From NCBI GenBank assembly GCA_037308085.1, contig CP147779.1, positions 160,001 to 224,000 on the forward strand: 64,000 nt of DNA, read 5' to 3'. How positions within the stretch are numbered: position 1 is the stretch's first letter; every line of letters begins with the position of its first letter. This document shows positions 29,103 through 43,221 of the stretch, one piece after another. The translations under genes and the position numbers were made by a program. The notes beneath the pieces are model-generated. The model saw only the letters and a list, made by a program, of their open reading frames with translations. It did not search any database and was not told the DNA's origin. The DNA comes from Promethearchaeati archaeon SRVP18_Atabeyarchaeia-1. GTDB taxonomy: Archaea; Asgardarchaeota; Atabeyarchaeia; Atabeyarchaeales; Atabeyarchaeaceae.

Positions 29103-29753
29103 TTGCCTAAGAAGTCGAAAAACAGTTCCGCCAAGGAAATCATCAAGTTCGGAATAGTGATAGCTATTATCATTGGCGGCGTACTGGGCGCAAACGTGGC
29201 GCTACAGGCTGCCCTAGGTACACCAATTCCAATAGTCGTGGTTACTTCGGGCAGCATGGTTCCAACAATAAACGTGGGAGATGTATGCGTGATACAAAGG
29301 GTTAGCCCTGATCAGTACGTTGTCGGGAACCATACCACCCACACGGGTGACATCATTGTATGGGATGCCACAGGCATACTGCAAACGGAAGGCAATGAAC
29401 CCGTAATACACAGAATTGTTGACCGCAGATACAACAACGGCACGGGGCACTTCGAGTTCCTGACAGAAGGAGATAACAATTTTGGCCCAGATCGTAGAAC
29501 CGACAACGGGAGCCTTGCATGGTTTCAGGACGCCAGAGTGTACGGCAAAGTCACACTCATAATACCTTGGATTGGCAACATATTCCTGTTCCTCAGAGGG
29601 GGAGGCGTATGGCTGGTGGTCTTGGTACTTGCAGTCATCATCGTACTGATGTTCGTAGAGGAGATGTCCAAGATAGAGAAAAAGGCAAAGGAGAAGCTTG
29701 AAACTAACCCTAATGGGAAAGGGTTGCATAATTCGAGTGAGTACGCAACCTAA
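29103..29753 (+). CDS. Signal peptidase I (Sec11-type)
   Basis: N-terminal TM, SGSMVPT Ser, IHRI His, GDNN, C-terminal TM. Confidence 0.92.
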   Translation: MPKKSKNSSAKEIIKFGIVIAIIIGGVLGANVALQAALGTPIPIVVVTSGSMVPTINVGDVCVIQRVSPDQYVVGNHTTHTGDIIVWDATGILQTEGNEPVIHRIVDRRYNNGTGHFEFLTEGDNNFGPDRRTDNGSLAWFQDARVYGKVTLIIPWIGNIFLFLRGGGVWLVVLVLAVIIVLMFVEEMSKIEKKAKEKLETNPNGKGLHNSSEYAT

Positions 29754-30970
29754 GATTGTGGATGCGAGACTATCGAGATGAATTCGTCTTGGGGTTTTAT
29801 TGCCCCGCTCCCGACCACGACCCTATAAAAGCACAACTTGCCAGTCCTCGCATCCTCTGCCTTTTCGAGCGAGCCTGATACCTTTATTTCATCTCCTTTG
29901 AAAGCTATCCCCCTTAGTTCCCCTATCATAGATACTACCTGTGAAGGTCTCATGTCGGCTTCCACGCGTGACTGTGGGTCAAGTGGTCTGTATCCTGACA
30001 CGCCGTAGATGGCAGGTCGGAAGAGAGACTCTCGATCTTCTGTTACTTTACATATGAATGATAAGTGGCGTTCGCTGTTGATGTAGTTCAGGTCTCCGAA
30101 GTGCTCAGTTATCTCTTCGTATGTTCTGATGGCGTTGAGTACGACTCTTTTGCCTTTCCAAGTGAAACGGTTCCTCCTCAACGTATCGAATATCGTTTCC
30201 TCGAGTAGACCGAAGCCACCATTTCTGTTAGCTAGATCATTGAGTTCCGCCAAGACTTTTCTGAAGTTTTCTGCGCCATATACCGCAACATCGATGTCGC
30301 TCTGCGGGTTATGCATCCCGAGCGAAATTGAGCCATGGACCCCGAACTTATCTAGCGGAACCCTGCAACACTCTGAGAGGAAGCTCGTCAACTTCGTTGC
30401 CATGTCCTCCAAATCATCTAGGTGCCCTTCTCGCTCCTTCTTGAAGAGCCTTGCTAGGCTCGTCGAGGGTTCGTATATCTTCTTAATGGCGGTCTTCGGA
30501 ACCGTGAGCAGCGACTTCTTAAGCTTAGGGTCTTCCACGACGTACCCTGAATGATTCTTCCTGAAGACGCCAATTATGTGATCGTAGTTGCTAGGCGAGT
30601 AGAGCATTGCCGGCCTTACGAGTTCTGTGTCCTCGAGTTTCCATTCGTAGGGTAGCCACTCTATCTCGAATTCCTTTGCCAGTTTCTTGGGAACGTACTT
30701 GAGGTACGAGATCACTCTCTCCGGTGGATGGAGATATCCGATTACATAAAAGACGAAGCCCTCCTTTGTCAGTGTGGCATCGCCATCTCGTGGAATCCAC
30801 GTTCGGATCTCGGCAGAATTCCGATTAGTCTGTGACAGTCTGCTTTCCTCCAAGATTCCGTCCCGATTGTTGTCCCGTCTACGCGCTGGGCGAGCTTCTC
30901 TCCGACTCTTCCTTTTGAACTCCTTTAGGGCCTCTTCCGTGCGCCTATGTTTCCTTGATGCTTCGCCCAA
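29750..30970 (-). CDS. Uncharacterised archaeal nucleotidyltransferase (Pol-beta fold), paralog 1
   Basis: GVHGS...SDIDVAVYG motif, RDGD...GYLHPP N-terminus; true start unclear (frame open to 31051). Confidence 0.8.
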   Translation of the reverse strand: MGEASRKHRRTEEALKEFKRKSRREARPARRRDNNRDGILEESRLSQTNRNSAEIRTWIPRDGDATLTKEGFVFYVIGYLHPPERVISYLKYVPKKLAKEFEIEWLPYEWKLEDTELVRPAMLYSPSNYDHIIGVFRKNHSGYVVEDPKLKKSLLTVPKTAIKKIYEPSTSLARLFKKEREGHLDDLEDMATKLTSFLSECCRVPLDKFGVHGSISLGMHNPQSDIDVAVYGAENFRKVLAELNDLANRNGGFGLLEETIFDTLRRNRFTWKGKRVVLNAIRTYEEITEHFGDLNYINSERHLSFICKVTEDRESLFRPAIYGVSGYRPLDPQSRVEADMRPSQVVSMIGELRGIAFKGDEIKVSGSLEKAEDARTGKLCFYRVVVGSGAIKPQDEFISIVSHPQS

Positions 30971-31044: not shown

Positions 31045-31698
31045 TTACCTCCTAGTTGATTCATCCAAGGTTTCCCCGGTGAAGCCTTGCTGGGTCCTTA
31101 CTTTTGTAAGTCTCGAGCCTGATTTTGCTGGCCTACCTTGCGCTTCTTCGGTTTTTGCCTTGATCCTATTGAGGATAATATCGAGAGCCCTTTTGGCTGC
31201 GTCGGTGGCTGTGAGTTTCTCTGAGTCTAGAACAAGGTCGGGTTTATCCCACTTGTACTTGCCGCCGGGGGTATCAAACCTCTTCGCGATTTTTGAAATC
31301 AATTCTTGGGGAATAGGCGTTCCTCTTGTTGCGTTGCGTCGTTGCGCAACTTCAACGCTTACAAGCAAAAGAATGATAATGTATTCTGCCCGGTGTTTCC
31401 GGGCAATTCCAATGAGCCTATGCCTGGCTGACTCGTAATAGTTTAGATCATCGCTGATTACGACATCGAGTTTTTCTAGGCTCTGATCGATTAGCGTCCA
31501 CGTCAGGGATTCGATAAAAGCCTCCTGCTTAGGATCGAATCGGCTTCTGAGGGCAGGCATCATCTCTCGAATCCTATCTGGATCAGCAATCATGGTGTGC
31601 AAGCCATGATTGAAATCTAGTTCCTTCGCCAGTTCCAGCGCGAGCTGAGTCTTACCAGTGCAAGGTATCCCACAGAGGATTACCAGCAATTTTGCCAA
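31045..31698 (-). CDS. pstK: O-phosphoseryl-tRNA(Sec) kinase; C-terminal domain apparently frameshifted
   Basis: GIPCTGKT, DDLNYYESAR, RRNATRG, FDTPGGKYKWDKP; located in the Sec cluster. Confidence 0.85.
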   Translation of the reverse strand: MAKLLVILCGIPCTGKTQLALELAKELDFNHGLHTMIADPDRIREMMPALRSRFDPKQEAFIESLTWTLIDQSLEKLDVVISDDLNYYESARHRLIGIARKHRAEYIIILLLVSVEVAQRRNATRGTPIPQELISKIAKRFDTPGGKYKWDKPDLVLDSEKLTATDAAKRALDIILNRIKAKTEEAQGRPAKSGSRLTKVRTQQGFTGETLDESTRR

Positions 31699-31878
31699 CC
31701 GCCTGACCTCCAAGATCGCCCCTGCAGACAAACGAAGCTAGGCGTCTGAAGCGATATATTATCTTCCCTTGAAGACAGTGAACGAATCTGAAGAAGACGT
31801 AAGGAGGGAGAGAGGAGGGGGTAACAGTCGGAATTGGGGTCTAGTTTCTCTCGGCTAGCCCCTCGTTGGTCTGAAAAA

Positions 31879-32841
31879 TCATACCTCTACTTTCAGGTTG
31901 AGTTTTTGAACCATTTCCTTGTACCTGTTCCGCACAGTTACCTCAGTTATGTGTGCTGCTCCAGCTACTTCCTGTTGAGTTCTTCTTTCTCCTTCTATGA
32001 GACCTGCTATGTAGAGAGCCGCTGCTGCCATGCCAGTAGGGTCCTTGCCCGCGGTCAGCCCCATCGCTTGAGCCTGGTCTATTATCTCGATTGCTCGTCG
32101 CTGAGCATTCACGGACATGCGAAGGTCTTCACCAAATCTGGAGATGAAGTCCTGTGGTTTAGGTCTCGGAATAGCTATACCTGATGTGTGCAAAATCAGT
32201 CTTATGCTTCTGCCCAGTTCCTTGCGTCCAGCATGCGTATGAGTCACTATTTCTTCAAGTGCCCTTGGCACGTGGTGGAGTCTGCATGCTAGGTAGACCG
32301 CCGCTGCAGTTACGCCATCAATTGTTCTTCCCCTCACCAGTCGCCTTTCAAGTGCCTTTCTGTAGATGATCGCTGCGGTTTCCTTGATGTCTCTCGGTAT
32401 ACCGAGCTGGCTCGTCAATCTATCGAGTTCGCTCATGGCTGTCGCCAAGTTCCGTTGCACGGAGTTGTGAACCATCGATCTGATCTGCCATTTCCGGAGT
32501 CTGTATATCTGCGCTCGTCTACTCGGTACCAGCTTGTTTCCGTAGACATCGATGTCTCTTCTGTCTATAACTGTACTGAGACCCTTGTCATGCATGGCAA
32601 AGGTTGTTGGCGCGCCTACGCGACTCCGACCTTCCTTCTCTTCAGAGGAAAAAGCTCTCCACTCAGGACCTTGGTCGATGTATCTTTCGGATATAACGAT
32701 CCCACAATTTCCGCAAATGATCTCTCCCCTTGTAGGATCTCTGTAGATCACTGTGCTTCCGCATTCAGGGCACGGTTCAGATGGGGTCTGTTCCTTCTCC
32801 TCATTTGGCTTTGGCTTGCTCCCGATCACTTCGTCTGCCAT
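31879..32841 (-). CDS. tfb: Transcription initiation factor IIB
   Basis: CPECG...CGNCG zinc ribbon, IDQGPEWRAF, two cyclin repeats, TEVTVRNRYKE. Confidence 0.96.
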   Translation of the reverse strand: MADEVIGSKPKPNEEKEQTPSEPCPECGSTVIYRDPTRGEIICGNCGIVISERYIDQGPEWRAFSSEEKEGRSRVGAPTTFAMHDKGLSTVIDRRDIDVYGNKLVPSRRAQIYRLRKWQIRSMVHNSVQRNLATAMSELDRLTSQLGIPRDIKETAAIIYRKALERRLVRGRTIDGVTAAAVYLACRLHHVPRALEEIVTHTHAGRKELGRSIRLILHTSGIAIPRPKPQDFISRFGEDLRMSVNAQRRAIEIIDQAQAMGLTAGKDPTGMAAAALYIAGLIEGERRTQQEVAGAAHITEVTVRNRYKEMVQKLNLKVEV

Positions 32842-33131
32842 CTCTTTTTCTACACCTCCTGTATCTTTCATAAGGCATTTCCTCACAAAGAAGGGTGAGC
32901 GATACCTGTCACTAGTATTCGATGCTGTCCGCTCCTGGCGGATTTTCACCCCAAAAACCCAGTTATTAACGGCCTTCATATCGTCAATTTAAGTAACCAT
33001 TACCGCGGGCAGATAAATATATAAGTGTTACGCTTCATGACTGCTTAAAACTCTTCCGACTCTCGCAGGGAAACAGCTTCTGCAAGACGAAATTATGCTA
33101 TAAGAGACGTGTTCTAACGTTAATTCGTTGT

Positions 33132-33695
33132 CTAGCCCGAACCACGTTGTGACTTGAGTATCTCTGCCAACAGCCACATTAAGGCCGCCTCAATATTCTG
33201 ACCAAGTTTCGCCGAGGTCTCAAAGTACTTCAGTCCAAGCCTTGAGGCGCGGGCTTCTGCTGTGGATCGATCGACGAGTCGCCTGTCGGTCAAGTCAATC
33301 TTGTTACCGATGAGAACTCCAGGGATGCCACTTGTCGCACTGGCGCACTCTCCCACCCAGTCATCCACCCTCGCCAACGTGTGAGGCATAGTGACGTCGA
33401 ACATGAAAACAGCGCCTGCACTACCTTTGTAGTACATAGGTCTGATTATTTTGAATTGGGGCTGCCCGGCCAGATCCCACATTATGAGCGTGACTTGGGT
33501 TCCCCTTACATCAATTCTCTTGGTTGTTATTTCGACTCCAATCGTCGGCAAATACTCGTCACGCAACTCCTTATGGGTGAAATTCCTTACGAGCGTCGTT
33601 TTCCCGACGGCGGGCTCACCCAAAACCACTATCTTGAAATGCGGTCCCTTTGAAATCGGGAACTCAACCTCATATTGCTCGTTCTTTTTGGGCAA
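33132..33695 (-). CDS. Rab/Ras-like small GTPase
   Basis: GEPAVGKT, PTIGV, WDLAGQ, YYKGS, NKID, ETSAK. Confidence 0.92.
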   Translation of the reverse strand: MPKKNEQYEVEFPISKGPHFKIVVLGEPAVGKTTLVRNFTHKELRDEYLPTIGVEITTKRIDVRGTQVTLIMWDLAGQPQFKIIRPMYYKGSAGAVFMFDVTMPHTLARVDDWVGECASATSGIPGVLIGNKIDLTDRRLVDRSTAEARASRLGLKYFETSAKLGQNIEAALMWLLAEILKSQRGSG

Positions 33696-33767: not shown

Positions 33768-34508
33768 TCAGAATGACTCAGGCCCTAGATCTATTTTCTC
33801 GTCGCCTTCTTCTTCGGCTTCTGGTTTCTTGGTCTCTGCGGATTCCTCTTTTACTTGATCAGCTGGCTCAGCAACCTCTGGAGTCTCTGCGACCTCGGGC
33901 TCAGCAACCTCTGCAGTCTCCGCGACCTCGGGCTCAGCAGGAACTGGCTTCAGCTTCATTATCCCCAGATCCATGAGAGTCTTCATGACGTTGTTGACTG
34001 CTCTATAGACATCTTCCTCTTTCTTTGCGCCTGTGCAAACAAGTTTGCCTGAACCGAAAAGAAGGATAACAACCTTTGGATCCTTCATCCTGTAGATCAG
34101 CCCTGGGAACTGTTCCGGCTCGTACATGACGTTTTCTAGGCTGTACGCGGCAAGCTCAAGGTTCAACTCCGCTCCCAAGGAAGCCGACGCAACTATGTTC
34201 TGGACGGTTATGACGGGTTCACCGGTAATTTGAATGCTAGCCTCACGCAGATGTTCGACTATTCTGTGGACTGCCCTCGAAGCTTCCGCCTCACTCTTGG
34301 CCCCGGTGCAGACCATTTTGCCGGAGTTGAAAATTAGGGTAGCAGTTTTCGGCTTCTTTAGGCGGTAGACGAGTCCCGGAAATTGTTCTGGATCATACTC
34401 GACATTGAGAAGCGAGCGGGCGACCTTGTCAAGATCAATCCTCTGATTGACCGTCACGGAGGCCACAACATTTTCTATCCTTATTTTTGGTTTCGGGAGT
34501 GTTGACAA
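33768..34508 (-). CDS. tbp: TATA-box binding protein with acidic C-terminal tail
   Basis: Two NxVAS...YxPEQFPGL...LxFxSGKxVCTGAK repeats. Confidence 0.97.
   Translation of the reverse strand: MSTLPKPKIRIENVVASVTVNQRIDLDKVARSLLNVEYDPEQFPGLVYRLKKPKTATLIFNSGKMVCTGAKSEAEASRAVHRIVEHLREASIQITGEPVITVQNIVASASLGAELNLELAAYSLENVMYEPEQFPGLIYRMKDPKVVILLFGSGKLVCTGAKKEEDVYRAVNNVMKTLMDLGIMKLKPVPAEPEVAETAEVAEPEVAETPEVAEPADQVKEESAETKKPEAEEEGDEKIDLGPESF
33865..33939. repeat. 33-bp tandem repeat (about 2.3 copies) in the TBP tail
   Basis: ggctcagcaacctctg(g/c)agtctc(t/c)gcgacctcg x2 plus ggctcagca. Confidence 0.9.
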
Positions 34509-34716
34509 CGAATAACATCCTCCTTTTGGGGAAACACAGGTTCCTGAGTTAAGAGCTAAAATCATCATTGGTTAGCAGGGCTATCCAATCAACCTTCTTT
34601 TTTCCTTATAAAGCTTGTATACTATATAAGCTGCTCCTTTTAAAACAAACGATTCGCCTCGGATGTGCGCGATTAATAGCGCAGATGCAGCCGATCCCGA
34701 AAACGGTCATAAGAAC

Positions 34717-35073: not shown

Positions 35074-36069
35074 CTAGGGTTTTCCTGAGAGTCTATCTTT
35101 TCGGAAGTCGAAGACCTCTGCGGAGACTTTGCCGTCCGTGATAAGAAGCCGCCCAGAGTCATTCACTTTGCCAACCGCTCTTGCTTCAACTCCATGCCTG
35201 TGAAATACCGAGAGGCAACTATCCTTATTCTCAGCTCTCACCGTCAGCACGACGCCGAACCCGGGATATGCTTTCAGCCATCTGTCTGAATCGATCCCTT
35301 GCGGCATAGGTATTTCCCCTAGGTTGATCACGCCTCCTGCTTTGCTTGAATGCAGGAGCATGCCAAGGGTACCAACAACACCTGGATTGCTGATGTCCTT
35401 CGCAGACGTTGAAACTCCACTACTCGCGATCTCGCGGATGGCGCTGAGGCAATTTGCGACCTCCGTCTTAGACTTGTGACTGGTTGTGTCCCAAGCATAT
35501 TTGAACATGTTATGAAAATGACCGTCAAGGTCAATGGCTACAACAATAAGATCGCCTGGAGACGCAGCATCGCTTCTAAGCAGTGAATTCTTCTGTACAA
35601 TGCCCAGGATGGCGACGCTCAGGGCATCGAATGGCGCGTCGGGATTGAGGTGCCCACCTACTATTGGAACATTGAATTTCATGCAACCGCTTACTATACC
35701 TTCCACGATCTTATCTCGAACGGCAGGCGAAGCGCTAGCTATCGTGTCAACTATAGCGATTGGCTCTCCACCTTTAGCCGACACATCGTTGACGGCGGCC
35801 AGAATTGAGCAATAGCCTGCAAACTTGGGATCGGCTTTGACGAGATCGTGCCACATTTCCTCTGCTTTGAAGAGAATTAGCCTTCCTTCGTCTCCGATAT
35901 CAATCACCGCACAGTCTTCGCCAAATGACTCGATTATTCTGGCACCTGGAGGGGTTATAGAGAGTGCGGTCTCCCTCATTTTTCTGGTAATTTCAATAAT
36001 AGGCAGCTTCCTGGTTGCGCCAGCGAAGGCTCTAAGCGAAGCAGCAGTCGATTTCAGATCAACGCTCAC
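35074..36069 (-). CDS. AIR synthase/PurM-fold protein (methanogenesis marker 2/sll0787-like)
   Basis: SFGEDCAVI, NDVSAKGG, GGHLNPD, KDISNPG; lacks the SelD N-terminal C/U-x-x-K motif. Confidence 0.8.
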   Translation of the reverse strand: MSVDLKSTAASLRAFAGATRKLPIIEITRKMRETALSITPPGARIIESFGEDCAVIDIGDEGRLILFKAEEMWHDLVKADPKFAGYCSILAAVNDVSAKGGEPIAIVDTIASASPAVRDKIVEGIVSGCMKFNVPIVGGHLNPDAPFDALSVAILGIVQKNSLLRSDAASPGDLIVVAIDLDGHFHNMFKYAWDTTSHKSKTEVANCLSAIREIASSGVSTSAKDISNPGVVGTLGMLLHSSKAGGVINLGEIPMPQGIDSDRWLKAYPGFGVVLTVRAENKDSCLSVFHRHGVEARAVGKVNDSGRLLITDGKVSAEVFDFRKDRLSGKP

Positions 36070-36285: not shown

Positions 36286-36463
36286 GGCGCCCGATAGCGG
36301 GGGTGGAGGAATGCTGGTTTAACCAGGAATCAGCGCGCTACCCAATCCCACGCACCGGACTTCAAATCCGGTACACCAGAAAAACCTGTTTTGCGGGTTC
36401 TGATTGGTGTGGAGTTCGATGCTCCTCTAAGTGTAGGAGTGAAAATCTCCTCGGGCGCCGCCA
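36286..36463 (+). tRNA. selC: tRNA-Sec (UCA) with three introns (36307-36345, 36384-36403, 36421-36445)
   Basis: 9-bp acceptor GGCGCCCGA/TCGGGCGCC plus GCCA; 6-bp anticodon stem with CTTCAAA loop (UCA at 36362-36364); 4-bp T stem; each insert bounded by a BHB/BHL motif; spliced product 94 nt. Confidence 0.93.
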
Positions 36464-36467
36464 GATT

Positions 36468-37166
36468 TCAGCCTTGCACAACCGGTTCCGGAGGCGCAGG
36501 AGAAGCTTCGTCTATTGTTCTAGACAACCTTCGTTTCCAATCCAAGACCTTCATGCTTACTGACCGTGACTGGTCGGGATCCAATGGCGTTTCCTGTGAG
36601 TGGTCATACAAGCTCGCCATTACGTCGCCGGTCTCGATGTGTATCGGGTCGAATCCTTCTAGTGTCTTGATTAGGGTCTCCCTCACGATTCCGATGAACG
36701 GGTATATGTCGCCAACGGGGGCCTTCACCAGCAACTTACCCAAAGCTGCATCTAGCTTCATTTCCACTTCTATCGTCTTGATGACTTTCGTTCTATTCTT
36801 CTCATCGAATTTCCCGATTCGCCCCACAAGCTCCTTGTACCTTTTCTCATAGTTCGTGAGAGCATCTGAAGATTCTTCGGGGCTGTCTGAGCATACAGTT
36901 ATCTCCAGTTTTCCATCTGGTGCCAGAAGGAGTTTCACCGCCAGCTGGTGTCCAGAGGAAGACTTTGTGGACAACACTGCCTCTGCTGAGAAGGAAGATG
37001 ACTCGCCACCCATTGTCCCGATATTCTTGTAGCATCTTGCCTTTATCGTAGCGACAGAATGATAAACTAATGCAAAGGAAGATTGAGCATCGAGACCGTT
37101 GACTGGAAGACTCGCTTGCCTGCAATCAAGACCCTCAGCTATCTTGCTCCAGTCGGATGATTCCAT
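36468..37166 (-). CDS. Hypothetical protein following selB-spcS
   Basis: 232-aa ORF, no recognised motif. Confidence 0.75.
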   Translation of the reverse strand: MESSDWSKIAEGLDCRQASLPVNGLDAQSSFALVYHSVATIKARCYKNIGTMGGESSSFSAEAVLSTKSSSGHQLAVKLLLAPDGKLEITVCSDSPEESSDALTNYEKRYKELVGRIGKFDEKNRTKVIKTIEVEMKLDAALGKLLVKAPVGDIYPFIGIVRETLIKTLEGFDPIHIETGDVMASLYDHSQETPLDPDQSRSVSMKVLDWKRRLSRTIDEASPAPPEPVVQG

Positions 37167-37212: not shown

Positions 37213-38586
37213 TCATCGTTGCGGACGTGTATGATCCGGCTCTCGTTTCCCTGTCCTTTTTGCTATAGTTTGCTTCATCCCTTCCTTTAATTTTTCTACC
37301 GCATTGAATATGTCTGTCTCTGTCGACCCTATCGCAGCGTTCACTACGACATAGGAGTATGGATAATTGTCACAACAAGACCCTCGACTGCCTCGCGGAA
37401 TAACCCTTGGTCCACTGACTCTCAGGGAATACAGTATTCCTCCGAGAAGGGATGGATCGGCATTGGAGACTGTCATGGCGCACGCTATTGGGCTTTTGAC
37501 TTTCAGCATTCTCTCTCCACACGATTCCGCTGCTTCACCAAGCAGTGTTTCAAGAAGCTTTCTGTTTGACTCTTGGGCATCGCGAAGCCTCTCGTATCCG
37601 TCAATCCCGACAGATAGAATAGATGCTAGGAACTGATAGATCGGAGATGCGGATGCTCGACCTACATAGCTTGACGCTACTTTCTCGGCGAAGTCTTCAT
37701 CGGGAGAAGCGATTATTGCCCCGCCCACTGGTGTCAAGAAGTTCTTGTCGGTGCTTTGTACTACAGCATCTACTCTCCCAGCGTCTATTGCCAATCGGAT
37801 CTCTCGCATGGTTTCTCTGCTCTGCGCCCCATAAGCATTGTTTATGATGTGGGGAATATTCTGCTCCGAAGCAATCCGGGCAATATCGGCTATTGAATCA
37901 GTCTCCCTTGGAGGGAAAAAAGTCGTTGTCGAGAGTATGGCGGAGCAACGCTTGTCAATAGCTTCGGCTATATCGGTGACCGGCACGCGCACCGCGTCGT
38001 CATAGGTCTTCCCTTCAATAACTCTTGCCTTGAGATTGACCAAGTTCATGGCCTTCAAAGGGGAATCATGATCCACCCTTGCGAAAACTACTGTGTCACG
38101 TTCGCCACGAATTGAATCTCTAGTTGCTGCTAGGGCAAGTGCGATCGACATTCCTGTGGCTACGGGAGAAACGATCGCAGACTTCAGGTTGAACGCACCG
38201 AGTTTCTGCATGGCATCTAGCGCACATTTGTTGGCCAATCCATAAAGGACCGATGCCCCGGGGGCCTTTGGCTGGGGTGAAAGGAGTGACCCGCTTCTCC
38301 CAACTCCATGACAGAACCCCCATGCCAACTCAGAGACCAGGGGAGAAGCTACTCTTGCCTCACGCTCCCCAATTCTTATGCCATCGATATCCTTGTCAGT
38401 ATCCATCATTGAGAGAAGTCTCATCAAGAGACCGATTACGTGATCCGGCCATCCCGATTGCGGGATCCGCCTCTGCTTGAATAGGTTCCTTATCAGATTC
38501 AATTGAGAACTAAAGGCTACTTCGGAACGCCTCAACATCGCTTTGGGTAAGAAACCCTCAAGGTATTCCTCAAGCTTGTCACTCAA
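37213..38586 (-). CDS. spcS: O-phosphoseryl-tRNA(Sec) selenium transferase (SepSecS)
   Basis: GEREARV, HGVGRSG...QPKAPG, INNAYG, QSTDKNF (PLP Lys), GRAS. Confidence 0.95.
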   Translation of the reverse strand: MSDKLEEYLEGFLPKAMLRRSEVAFSSQLNLIRNLFKQRRIPQSGWPDHVIGLLMRLLSMMDTDKDIDGIRIGEREARVASPLVSELAWGFCHGVGRSGSLLSPQPKAPGASVLYGLANKCALDAMQKLGAFNLKSAIVSPVATGMSIALALAATRDSIRGERDTVVFARVDHDSPLKAMNLVNLKARVIEGKTYDDAVRVPVTDIAEAIDKRCSAILSTTTFFPPRETDSIADIARIASEQNIPHIINNAYGAQSRETMREIRLAIDAGRVDAVVQSTDKNFLTPVGGAIIASPDEDFAEKVASSYVGRASASPIYQFLASILSVGIDGYERLRDAQESNRKLLETLLGEAAESCGERMLKVKSPIACAMTVSNADPSLLGGILYSLRVSGPRVIPRGSRGSCCDNYPYSYVVVNAAIGSTETDIFNAVEKLKEGMKQTIAKRTGKREPDHTRPQR

Positions 38587-38674: not shown

Positions 38675-40060
38675 TCAAGGTATATTAAAATCCCGATACC
38701 TCCTAAGGAAGACCTTCTCGCCCAGTTGTGGAAGTCTTTCGAACTCGGCGACAACAAGACCTTTGCCCCCAAAAGCAGAAGATACAGTGCCATTGTCGCC
38801 GTTCTCTTTCGAGATGGTTTTACCAATGATCTTTTCCGCGCCTATCTTGCTCTTCGCCAACCCGCTGACGATCACGTTGGCCCTCGGGGTTATTCTGGTG
38901 ACCGCCCCCGACTTCTTCTCAAGCACTTTCAGTGGCGGGGGGTTGGTCAGAGTCTCTAGCACTGTGCCACCAGCGGCTATTCTAAGATTCGTGGGAGGAA
39001 GACTGAGTAATAGTAGAAGCATTTTGTCCCCTTTCTCCACTACGACGGACTTGGACAACCTGATATATGATGTGAAATCTCTCTCTTTAGGTGCTGATGC
39101 AACGACGAATTCCTGTTGTTCATTTGTCAGATAGGGAAAAACTTGGGATTGAATCGACGACATGCCTACCGCGGCATGCATTGACAGTCCTGGAGCAATC
39201 TCATGTTTGAAGAACTTGCTCACACACCCACCAAAAAGGAGGTGAAAGGTCGTCCTCAGTGATTTCGGTGAGGAGGCGTAGCATCCCCTGTAGATAGAAC
39301 GATGATCGACGCCTTGTAAGGCAATGCCTACGCGGTCTCCGGCCTCAGCCTTTTCCCTCGGCTCACTGAATGTCTGAATGGATTTGACACGACAGATTGC
39401 ACCTATGGGTGATATCTCCACATCGTCTCCGACTTTCACTTTTCCTCGCATAATCGTTCCTGTCACGACTGTGCCGGCGCCCTTTATTGGAAAAGAATGG
39501 TCTATCACCATCTTGAACTTTCCATCGACATCCCGTTCTGGAGGAGAAAGCAGTGAAAGAAGAGTTTTCTTTAGCTCGGGCAATCCCAATCCGGTAATGG
39601 ATGAGACCGCCACTACTGGTGCATCCGCGTAGCTTGAATCCGAGATGACCTTTCGAACTGATTCCTTGCTTTCGCTCAACTTGCTTTCTTCAACCAAATC
39701 GGCGTACGTGAGTGCAACTAATAGCTTACGTATCTTTAGGCTCTCAAGTAGCACTAGGTGCTCTCCAGTTTGGATTTGCGGTCCTTGCTTTGCAGAGACA
39801 ACCAAGATAGCTAGGTCAATTATGTTGGCACCGCTAACCGCCGTTCTTACCAGATCTGCATGTCCAGGAACATCAACAAGGGTCACTAGGTAGTCCCCTA
39901 GTGTGAACGCAGTGAAGCCGATATCAATAGTCATCTGCCTTCTTTTGGCTTCTGGGTGCCCGTCTAGCCCCGCAGTTGAAACCTTCTCGCTCAACGCGCG
40001 AGCGAGCTCAGTCTTCCCGTGATCCACATGACCGAACAGACCGACATGAACTGGGATCAT
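38675..40060 (-). CDS. selB: Selenocysteine-specific elongation factor (archaeal type)
   Basis: GHVDHGKT, TIDIGF, DVPGHADL, QTGEH, GDRVG, short C-terminal domain IV. Confidence 0.93.
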   Translation of the reverse strand: MIPVHVGLFGHVDHGKTELARALSEKVSTAGLDGHPEAKRRQMTIDIGFTAFTLGDYLVTLVDVPGHADLVRTAVSGANIIDLAILVVSAKQGPQIQTGEHLVLLESLKIRKLLVALTYADLVEESKLSESKESVRKVISDSSYADAPVVAVSSITGLGLPELKKTLLSLLSPPERDVDGKFKMVIDHSFPIKGAGTVVTGTIMRGKVKVGDDVEISPIGAICRVKSIQTFSEPREKAEAGDRVGIALQGVDHRSIYRGCYASSPKSLRTTFHLLFGGCVSKFFKHEIAPGLSMHAAVGMSSIQSQVFPYLTNEQQEFVVASAPKERDFTSYIRLSKSVVVEKGDKMLLLLLSLPPTNLRIAAGGTVLETLTNPPPLKVLEKKSGAVTRITPRANVIVSGLAKSKIGAEKIIGKTISKENGDNGTVSSAFGGKGLVVAEFERLPQLGEKVFLRRYRDFNIP

Positions 40061-40105: not shown

Positions 40106-41184
40106 TCAAGAGACATCAAGGGAAGAAGCAGGTCTTAACACTTGCTCATAGTAGTTCGACGCCCTCGTAAGGGTGATCTGGTAGTATTCCCCCTTGGAAT
40201 CCGTGACCTTCTCCAAGTTGCCTTCAACGACAACTTCTTCCCCAGCTTCTGCCTGCCCCCTGAATTCCTCAACAAAGGAAGTAATCTGCCTGATCGGGCC
40301 AACATTCATTCCCTTCAGAACCTTCTTCAATTCTATCTTATAGAGCGAAGGCATGAAGAAGGAGTCAGTGTCATCGAGTACTTCGGCGACCGCTCTGATC
40401 CGCCCTAGAGTCTCGATTCTGGAGCTTGGGTCATATCTTTCTTCGATCTCGTTCCAGTCTCGCACTGGCTCAAACTCGATCTTGAAGTCACGACCAAGCC
40501 GCTCTGGTTTGTAGATCGCGTATACCATTTTTCTGCGGCAGTATTGACAGAAGTCCCTTAAGGGTATGTCCTTGAAGTACCAGTGCCTGCCGTTGGCCCA
40601 CTTCCTCCACTCATCGAACTCGTTGCTCATTTTCAGTCCAGGCTGACTGTAAATTTCTCGCAGAGTCTCTCTCAAAACCTGCGTGCTTCGCCGACCGTAA
40701 ACCACGAAATCGAGATCGCTAAACTCTGGATGGTGAAAGCCATGAAGTACCGAACCGAACACCCCAAAATCACTCGGGCGCAACTTCGAGTGACTGGTTA
40801 CAGTATCCAAGACCTCTCGCAGAGCAACTAGCAGCTTGTCTTGATCTAATCGATTGCCCTCCAGCAAAGAATGGAGTTTAGCTTCAGGTCGCCTTAGTTC
40901 CGCAATCTGCGCTAAGGTTAGTCCGACCAGTTTTCTCTGAAGCGGCGCGAAGAATAGTTGGTACTGTGGGTATCTCTCTGCCACAAACCTTAGTCCACCG
41001 TCGACGTAGAACTTGTAATACCGGCCAGATGGGGACTGACGAACCGCGCGAGGGTCATCTGTAGAGTAGATCTCCTCCGGCGCATATTCCACGTCACACA
41101 CGCAACTCTTAGGAGGATGAGAGTATCCGTACACTCTCAGAATAAGTCCCTCTCTTGTAACTGGGGAGTCTCTATCCCTTGCTT
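40106..41184 (-). CDS. Uncharacterised archaeal nucleotidyltransferase, paralog 2 (5' end irregular)
   Basis: GVFGS...SDLDFVVYG; homologous N-terminus ARDRDSPVTREGLILRVYGYSHPP lies upstream of the first in-frame start (41134). Confidence 0.8.
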
Positions 41185-42591: not shown

Positions 42592-43221
42592 TCACATCTT
42601 CATCCATTCAAAGATCAAGTAGTTAACCTGACCCGACAGCGAGATCGTCGCGATAATGAACTTCTTTCTGACCGTCGTCGCAAGTCTTCCTGCCCTTACG
42701 GTTTCTATTGGGTTGATCGTTGAGCCCTTTGGCAAAGCATGCACTATGAAAGGCGCGTGGTCAATGCCCGGGCCACGCTGATAGACGCCGTAGTCGGCCC
42801 CAAACTTCAATCCAGGTCTAACAACATATCCTCTGTTCCTTAGATCCTTGTAGACGAGGTACTTGTCATCGAATCCATCATAGACTTTCTGCGCAAACTG
42901 TTGCAGTTCTTGGGCAGACATCTGATTCTTAGTCTTCGCATCAATCAGATTGATTCTCTTTTTCTCCAGTAAATAGAGAGCTTCCAACAAGGAGAGTTCG
43001 ACGGGGCATGTGAAGTCAAATGTCTTTGGCTTTCGAACCGATATAGGCTGACCATAGAAGCCTTCTTTATAGAGAGTTGACCCATCTTGTGGATCCCAAA
43101 CAATGACGTGCGTTTCGAAGAGCTCGGCTGTGATAGTCTTCTTGACCTCCGACTTCGAATTCGGCTCACCGATTTGTTTTTGCGCTTTGGCTTGTTCAGA
43201 GCTGTCACTGGGTTGTATCAT
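42592..43221 (-). CDS. endA: tRNA-intron (splicing) endonuclease, catalytic subunit
   Basis: LSLLEALYL, VYKDLRNRGY, GLKFGADYGVY, IDHAP, VRKK (Tyr-His-Lys triad). Confidence 0.93.
   Translation of the reverse strand: MIQPSDSSEQAKAQKQIGEPNSKSEVKKTITAELFETHVIVWDPQDGSTLYKEGFYGQPISVRKPKTFDFTCPVELSLLEALYLLEKKRINLIDAKTKNQMSAQELQQFAQKVYDGFDDKYLVYKDLRNRGYVVRPGLKFGADYGVYQRGPGIDHAPFIVHALPKGSTINPIETVRAGRLATTVRKKFIIATISLSGQVNYLIFEWMKM

Follow-up and report, generated by a model that had tools for sequence, protein, structure and literature searches.

Is the interrupted sequence in the middle of this DNA a genuine selenocysteine tRNA (tRNA-Sec) gene, and are the three inserts that divide it introns? The window, by which we mean the whole 64-kb stretch of DNA analysed, covers positions 160001–224000 of the 2.81-Mb single-contig Atabeyarchaeia-1 genome, and by coordinate comparison window position 36286 is genome position 196286. 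The locus is a genuine tRNA-Sec(UCA) gene of the 9/4 type with three introns, none of which lies in the anticodon loop (Table 1). This is how an initial annotation, made from the DNA letters, had described it. Below, we set out what defines the gene and the boundaries of its inserts, how these inserts would be removed, and how the gene relates to its neighbours and to tRNA-Sec genes of other Asgard lineages.

Table 1. The tRNA-Sec gene, its exons and introns, and the protein-coding genes around it (window coordinates)
Feature	Position	Strand	Description
tRNA-Sec(UCA) gene	36286–36463	+	discriminator G (36460) and CCA (36461–36463) both encoded
Anticodon TCA	36362–36364	+	
Exon 1	36286–36306	+	9-nt acceptor 5' strand, 2-nt linker, 7-nt D-stem 5' strand, D-loop TGG
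Intron 1 (39 nt)	36307–36345	+	D-loop, between TGG and T; strict hBHBh', h 2 bp, h' 2 bp
Exon 2	36346–36383	+	last D-loop base, D-stem 3' strand, anticodon arm (6 bp), variable arm 5' half
Intron 2 (20 nt)	36384–36403	+	variable-arm loop; relaxed BHB with 4-nt 3' bulge; alternative register 36383–36404
Exon 3	36404–36420	+	variable arm 3' half, T-stem 5' strand, first six T-loop bases TTCGAT
Intron 3 (25 nt)	36421–36445	+	T-loop, between TTCGAT and T (59/60 in standard numbering); strict hBHBh', h 4 bp, h' 5 bp
Exon 4	36446–36463	+	last T-loop base, T-stem 3' strand, acceptor 3' strand, G, CCA
PSTK-like kinase, KTI12 family (short, 228 aa)	31045–31731	-	PF08433, E 3e-33
AIR-synthase-like protein	35074–36069	-	divergent from tRNA-Sec
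Sel_Asgard, putative selenocysteine-system protein (232 aa)	36468–37166	-	NCBIfam NF045535, 137.7 bits (cut-off 132)
SepSecS, O-phosphoseryl-tRNA(Sec) selenium transferase	37213–38586	-	PF05889, E 4e-114; TIGR03531, 467 bits
Archaeal EFsec/SelB	38675–40060	-	PF21440 (aSelB_III); TIGR00475, 290 bits
EndA catalytic (alpha) subunit	42592–43221	-	PF01974 and PF02778; ~6 kb from tRNA-Sec

The gene and the boundaries of its inserts

Joining the four exons of Table 1 yields a 94-nt sequence that reproduces, letter for letter, the string proposed in the initial annotation. Its architecture was assessed together with that of its relatives. Five further Atabeyarchaeia loci, four complete and one partial copy that ends after intron 2, carry inserts at the same sites; they come from a genome of the same genus (G001), the complete Atabeyarchaeia-2 genome (G002) and three JGI metagenome contigs. 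Together with the gene itself and those of two Freyarchaeia genomes, these gave an alignment of eight sequences from which all structure counts were taken. The anticodon arm (ACCGGA-CTTCAAA-TCCGGT, 36354–36372) presents UCA in a 7-nt loop on a 6-bp stem that is 95.8% paired over the eight sequences and in which one pair has changed on both sides. The 9-bp acceptor stem and the 4-bp T-stem, which together make a 13-bp coaxial stack, are fully paired in 7/7 sequences, and between Atabeyarchaeia and Freyarchaeia four acceptor pairs and one T-stem pair have changed on both sides. Over the mature cloverleaf as a whole, 95.5% of cells are paired, against 36–51% in slid controls, and nine pairs have changed on both sides. 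All of exon 1 except the linker is invariant among the six Atabeyarchaeia copies, and this exon aligns without gaps to intron-free Asgard tRNA-Sec.

The structure is not flawless. The spliced D-arm (GCGGGGG-TGGT-CCCACGC) has a 7-bp stem and a 4-nt loop, and the stem contains the single G-A mismatch that had been pointed out before; it is kept in all six Atabeyarchaeia copies and replaced by G-U in Freyarchaeia. Atabeyarchaeia-2 has a second D-stem mismatch. The variable stem comprises 6–7 bp, and in the variable arm of the same-genus genome one C-A mismatch occurs. Each of the seven genes that are complete in Atabeyarchaeia and Freyarchaeia ends with an encoded discriminator G and CCA, and so do the 3/3 Lokiarchaeia-family genes inspected; according to a review, CCA is usually not part of archaeal tRNA-Sec genes (PMC9499178). 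Most loci have, as judged by eye, an A/T-rich box ~30–50 nt before the mature 5' end, a faint hint of a candidate promoter followed by a short leader.

The boundaries of the inserts are defined by homologues that lack them. Among 151 Asgard genomes searched with the Rfam model RF01852, 63 had matches above threshold, which were mostly 87–89 nt long and uninterrupted. We extracted 17 intron-free Asgard tRNA-Sec genes, scoring 56–67 bits to RF01852. In all of these the acceptor stem has 9 bp, the D-stem 7 bp, the anticodon stem 6 bp and the T-stem 4 bp, and the variable arm is long. Their D-loop reads TGGT in 17/17 genes and their T-loop TTCGATT in 16/17. Excision at junctions 1 and 3 restores exactly these two loops, and in the alignment to the intron-free genes the 39-nt insert falls precisely between TGG and T of the D-loop. 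MAFFT placed the third insert after the T-stem, between it and the acceptor stem, by way of a CTCCTC repeat; we rejected this placement because it breaks either the acceptor stem or the T-stem in G001 and G002.

The inserts hide the gene from standard scanners, as the initial annotation had anticipated. ARAGORN called no tRNA in the entire 64-kb window, and Rfam reported nothing at the gathering score. Under permissive settings RF01852 reached 21.3 bits on the unspliced gene against a threshold of 47, and the alignment did not extend beyond the anticodon and variable arms and one half of the T-arm. The spliced 94-nt sequence, by contrast, was called tRNA-SeC(tca) by ARAGORN. Its minimum free energy structure (ViennaRNA) is the 9/4 cloverleaf, at -50.4 kcal/mol (z = -5.3 relative to shuffled sequences). 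With an HMM of the intron-free Asgard genes (nhmmer), the spliced form scored 37.5 bits (E 3e-13), as against 12.9 bits for the best unspliced piece. The unspliced gene itself folds at -83.2 kcal/mol (z = -6.2) into a structure that preserves the acceptor, anticodon, variable and T stems, with one hairpin emerging from each of the D-, variable and T-loops.

There was no second tRNA-Sec candidate anywhere in the 2.8-Mb genome. The other CTTCAAA site (genome position 1660687) was rejected as one, since it falls inside an open reading frame, and the RF01852 matches that score better elsewhere in the genome are not tRNA-Sec; they correspond to tRNA-Val, Ser, Ala, Cys and Arg. A phylum-wide search with the anticodon-arm pattern returned mostly coding or unrelated sites, and a filter for a 9-bp acceptor stem left just the genes of Atabeyarchaeia and Freyarchaeia.

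Splicing motifs and the register of intron 2

Each insert is bounded by the elements of a bulge-helix-bulge (BHB) motif, for which we required a 4-bp central helix and 3-nt bulges on opposite strands, with the cut after the second bulge base. At intron 1, GGGT (36301–36304) pairs with ACCC (36340–36343) between bulges GG^A and AA^T. At intron 2, AGAA (36378–36381) pairs with TTCT (36398–36401) between bulges AA^A and GA^TT. At intron 3, TTCG (36415–36418) pairs with TGAA (36440–36443) between bulges AT^G and AA^T, and the T-stem itself serves as h. These are the helices and bulges named in the initial annotation, and every one of them is present. Introns 1 and 3 have the strict hBHBh' form, in which h and h' are at least 2 bp long, and the combination of a 4-bp helix with two 3-nt bulges recurs exactly in 8/8 sequences for intron 1 and in 7/7 for intron 3.

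A BHB motif alone is weak evidence, since a loose version of the strict definition, with G-U pairs allowed and 2-bp outer helices, is satisfied, out of 12,925 possible start/end pairs, by ~5 in a shuffled sequence of 198 nt. With so permissive a definition, the weight rests on motifs that land exactly at the boundaries defined by homology, and on covariation. That two BHB motifs coincide exactly with boundaries set independently of them is not chance. In the precursor BHB structure 93.2% of cells are paired, against 36–48% in slid controls, and 17 pairs have changed on both sides. All three 4-bp central helices are paired in every sequence. In h' of intron 1 all four counted pairs have changed on both sides, and pairs in the inner helix of intron 3 have done so too. 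In intron 2 the central helix is 100% paired yet invariant, and h' is paired in only 54% of cells. That the three inserts have stayed at their sites over family-level divergence, and that changes in the splicing helices compensate one another, is good comparative evidence for their splicing.

The cut sites of intron 2 are ambiguous by one base on each side (36384–36403 or 36383–36404). The sites first proposed, 36384–36403, have the pairing described for them, and the second register fits at least as well. With the same gene and the same mechanism, intron 2 would then measure 22 nt and the mature tRNA 92 nt, a version that we place somewhat short of even odds. Here the central helix is CAGA/TCTG with bulges AA^A and AT^T, both of 3 nt, and h' spans 2–6 bp in 6/6 copies, while the variable arm becomes a 6-bp stem capped by a GAAA tetraloop; a GCAA (GNRA) tetraloop occupies the variable arm in one group of intron-free genes. 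By eye, the resulting 16-nt variable region fits the 15–17 nt of the intron-free and Freyarchaeia genes, whereas 18 nt falls outside this range. Moreover, the sole orthologue substitution at 36404 (T to G, in G001) would become intronic. The 92-nt product is still called tRNA-SeC by ARAGORN, folds slightly better than the 94-nt product (-50.9 vs. -50.4 kcal/mol) and scores slightly higher against the intron-free HMM (39.3 vs. 37.5 bits), although these differences in energy and score are small. Against the wider excision stands its outer helix h, which is only 1 bp long. With 36384–36403, h measures 3–6 bp across the copies (6 in this gene) and h' 1–5 bp, at the cost of a 4-nt 3' bulge.

Selenocysteine genes and a splicing endonuclease nearby

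The genes for SepSecS, EFsec, Sel_Asgard and the PSTK-like kinase all lie no more than 6 kb from tRNA-Sec. The Sel_Asgard gene is convergent with tRNA-Sec and ends 4 nt past its CCA. Its product (36468–37166) had no Pfam match, and homologues occupy the same place in all Atabeyarchaeia loci and also in Freyarchaeia, there at 25% identity. The PSTK-like kinase scored 148.5 bits to TIGR03574, below the cut-off of 290.5, over profile positions 1–190 of 249; in the published KO table, Atabeyarchaeia-1 is scored as lacking PSTK. The AIR-synthase-like protein matched TIGR03267 ('methanogenesis marker 2') with 335 bits, just under the cut-off, and is also close to the sll0787 family. We rejected it as a selenophosphate synthetase (SelD), to which its match was weak (46 bits), and no canonical SelD was seen within the 64-kb window. 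The order AIR-synthase-like gene, tRNA-Sec, Sel_Asgard, SepSecS is common to Atabeyarchaeia and Freyarchaeia.

Other genes are interspersed with these. Two proteins with PF01909 nucleotidyltransferase domains (29750–30970 and 40106–41134, both on the - strand) enclose the Sec genes: one follows the PSTK-like gene, the other precedes EFsec. Between the PSTK-like and AIR-synthase-like genes lie genes for a Ras-family small GTPase, which is a eukaryotic signature protein, TBP and TFIIB (33132–33695, 33768–34568 and 31879–32979, all on the - strand). The EndA alpha subunit has its best solved relatives among the alpha subunits of crenarchaeal (alpha-beta)2 enzymes (Aeropyrum, Sulfolobus, Pyrobaculum; 3p1z_B, E 5e-46), and it is the enzyme expected to cut all three introns. 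A second, more divergent EndA paralogue is encoded at genome positions 623841–624566.

Given the sequence, folds, conservation, covariation and gene context, the best explanation is that this is the single functional tRNA-Sec of Atabeyarchaeia-1, produced from a triple-spliced BHB precursor. We assign this reading a probability of roughly 0.93. For transcription, cleavage, ligation and use in translation, we infer the following course. Transcription would give a precursor of ~178 nt plus leader, which would retain the acceptor, anticodon, variable-arm and T stems, with the intron hairpins protruding from the D-, variable-arm and T-loops. At each insert, the four exon bases upstream of the 5' cut would pair with the four intron bases upstream of the 3' cut; an (alpha-beta)2 EndA would cut after the second base of each of the bulges that flank this 4-bp helix. 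An RNA ligase would join the four exons into a product of 94 nt, or of 92 nt with the wider register of intron 2. The mature tRNA would then be serylated, phosphorylated (PSTK), converted (SepSecS) and delivered (EFsec) by enzymes that the neighbouring genes are predicted to encode. A 2026 preprint states that splicing in an Asgard cell has been demonstrated for none of the intervening sequences that it newly identified in Asgard tRNA genes (bioRxiv 10.64898/2026.10.13.758758).

The initial annotation also suggested that triple splicing makes a potential control point for selenocysteine decoding. The dependence itself holds for the triple-spliced gene: as tRNA-Sec is single-copy, all Sec decoding would depend on its splicing. 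That this amounts to a dedicated control of selenoproteins, with the EndA of the Sec cluster tuning the supply of tRNA-Sec, is highly improbable. In both complete Atabeyarchaeia genomes EndA alpha is indeed encoded ~6 kb from tRNA-Sec, but in Freyarchaeia the distance is ~1 Mb, and we saw no regulatory element. In addition, the genome paper reports introns in 92–95% of the tRNA genes of Atabeyarchaeia genomes, and several introns in more than half, which means that EndA is needed for nearly every tRNA and gives no specific support to a role in selenocysteine control (PMC11291895).

Could the inserts instead stay in the RNA, in a tRNA with expanded loops or in a decaying pseudogene? The five complete Atabeyarchaeia copies are 97% identical in their exons and 60% in their introns, while in the same lineages the neighbouring SepSecS proteins are ~70% and the Sel_Asgard proteins ~50% identical. 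The elbow contacts of a tRNA depend on its D-loop and T-loop, and inserts of 25–39 nt retained in these loops would disrupt them. Retention or decay is barely credible: the low Rfam score of the genomic sequence and the D-stem mismatch speak for it, and against a pseudogene stand this contrast between exons and introns, the BHB helices maintained by compensatory changes, and the position of the gene as the only tRNA-Sec in a genome with Sec machinery and, according to the genome paper, selenoprotein genes (PMC11291895).

Introns in the tRNA-Sec genes of Asgard archaea

The two Freyarchaeia genomes have D-loop and T-loop inserts at positions identical to those in Atabeyarchaeia, and the variable-loop insert is absent. 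Their tRNA-Sec genes (L012:1422–1574, - strand, which is G037:C1:810384–810536, and L013:1421–1574, - strand) are 153–154 nt long with CCA encoded, and apparently contain two introns, of 28 nt in the D-loop and 32–33 nt in the T-loop. The D-loop intron has an h of 1 bp, read by eye, and was not listed as strict by the motif scan. A published table gives the Freyarchaeia tRNA-Sec as 810415–810536 with one intron; this interval stops inside the T-loop intron, so that the table seems to lack one intron and the 3' end of the gene. One Lokiarchaeia-family genome (L108, G305) has a single insert, of ~29 nt, in the T-loop at the identical site, between TTCGAT and T. Elsewhere, two genomes of one different Lokiarchaeia-family genus (L107 = G181 and L109 = G179) have a single insert in the anticodon loop, at or near the canonical site, and in families f6, f9 and f30 tRNA-Sec is uninterrupted in most genomes.

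Atabeyarchaeia and Freyarchaeia are both intron-rich classes, reported not to be sisters and to differ in most of their intron positions. An ancient origin of the D-loop and T-loop introns of tRNA-Sec comes into consideration because their positions are identical in the two classes and the T-loop site is common to a Lokiarchaeia-family genome. They would then be among the oldest retained non-canonical introns in Asgard tRNAs, repeatedly lost in lineages that are now intron-free, which we consider unlikely. Alternatively, the shared sites may reflect independent gain at hot spots permissive for BHB motifs.

The initial annotation mentioned reported insertions in Asgard tRNA-Sec and left the novelty of this gene to be checked. 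Such a precedent does exist. The Lokiarchaeota tRNA-Sec, likewise an Asgard gene of the 9/4 type, has a non-canonical BHB intron of 31 nt in the T-loop (Mariotti et al. 2016, PMC4989117), and in a 2022 review it was the sole archaeal tRNA-Sec with an intron (PMC9499178). Whereas that gene has one intron, the Atabeyarchaeia-1 gene has three, adding those in the D-loop and the variable loop. The gene and its intron count are, however, already known. Supplementary Data 4 of Valentin-Alvarado et al. (2024, Nat Commun, PMC11291895) lists tRNA 40 of Atabeyarchaeia-1 (entered as SRVP_Atabeyarchaeota_1_curated.FINAL; 196286–196460, SeC, UCA) with 0 introns predicted by tRNAscan, a total of 3 observed with R2DT and the remark 'Identified via Secmarker'; the Secmarker Infernal score given by the authors is 46.6. 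This interval equals window positions 36286–36460, and further tRNA coordinates in the table also match the genome. Gene, anticodon and intron count are the same as at our locus. The table has no intron coordinates for tRNA 40, and the passages of the article text that touch on the Sec tRNA do so briefly and leave its introns unmentioned. What is added here are the cut sites, the anatomy of the BHB motifs, the evidence from orthologues and covariation, and the ambiguity of intron 2.

In mechanism, the gene does not differ from the multi-intron tRNAs of Thermoproteales and of Atabeyarchaeia and Freyarchaeia, which have up to three or four short BHB introns at non-canonical sites and are served by a two-subunit (alpha-beta)2 EndA with an L1 crenarchaeal-specific loop (PMC5829648; bioRxiv 10.64898/2026.10.13.758758). 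The difference lies in the host, here a class II tRNA-Sec of the 9/4 type, with one intron in the loop of the variable arm. In multi-intron tRNA genes, D-arm inserts are overlooked by tRNAscan-SE (PMC5829648; bioRxiv 10.64898/2026.10.13.758758). The locus exemplifies the consequence for annotation, as an essential decoding component is overlooked by ARAGORN, Rfam and tRNAscan-SE alike, and tRNA-Sec would then seem to be missing from a genome that has SepSecS, EFsec and selenoprotein genes. The finding leaves the general understanding of selenocysteine decoding and of tRNA splicing as it was. For Atabeyarchaeia, it means that the extreme intron load of their tRNA genes reaches even the single-copy tRNA-Sec.
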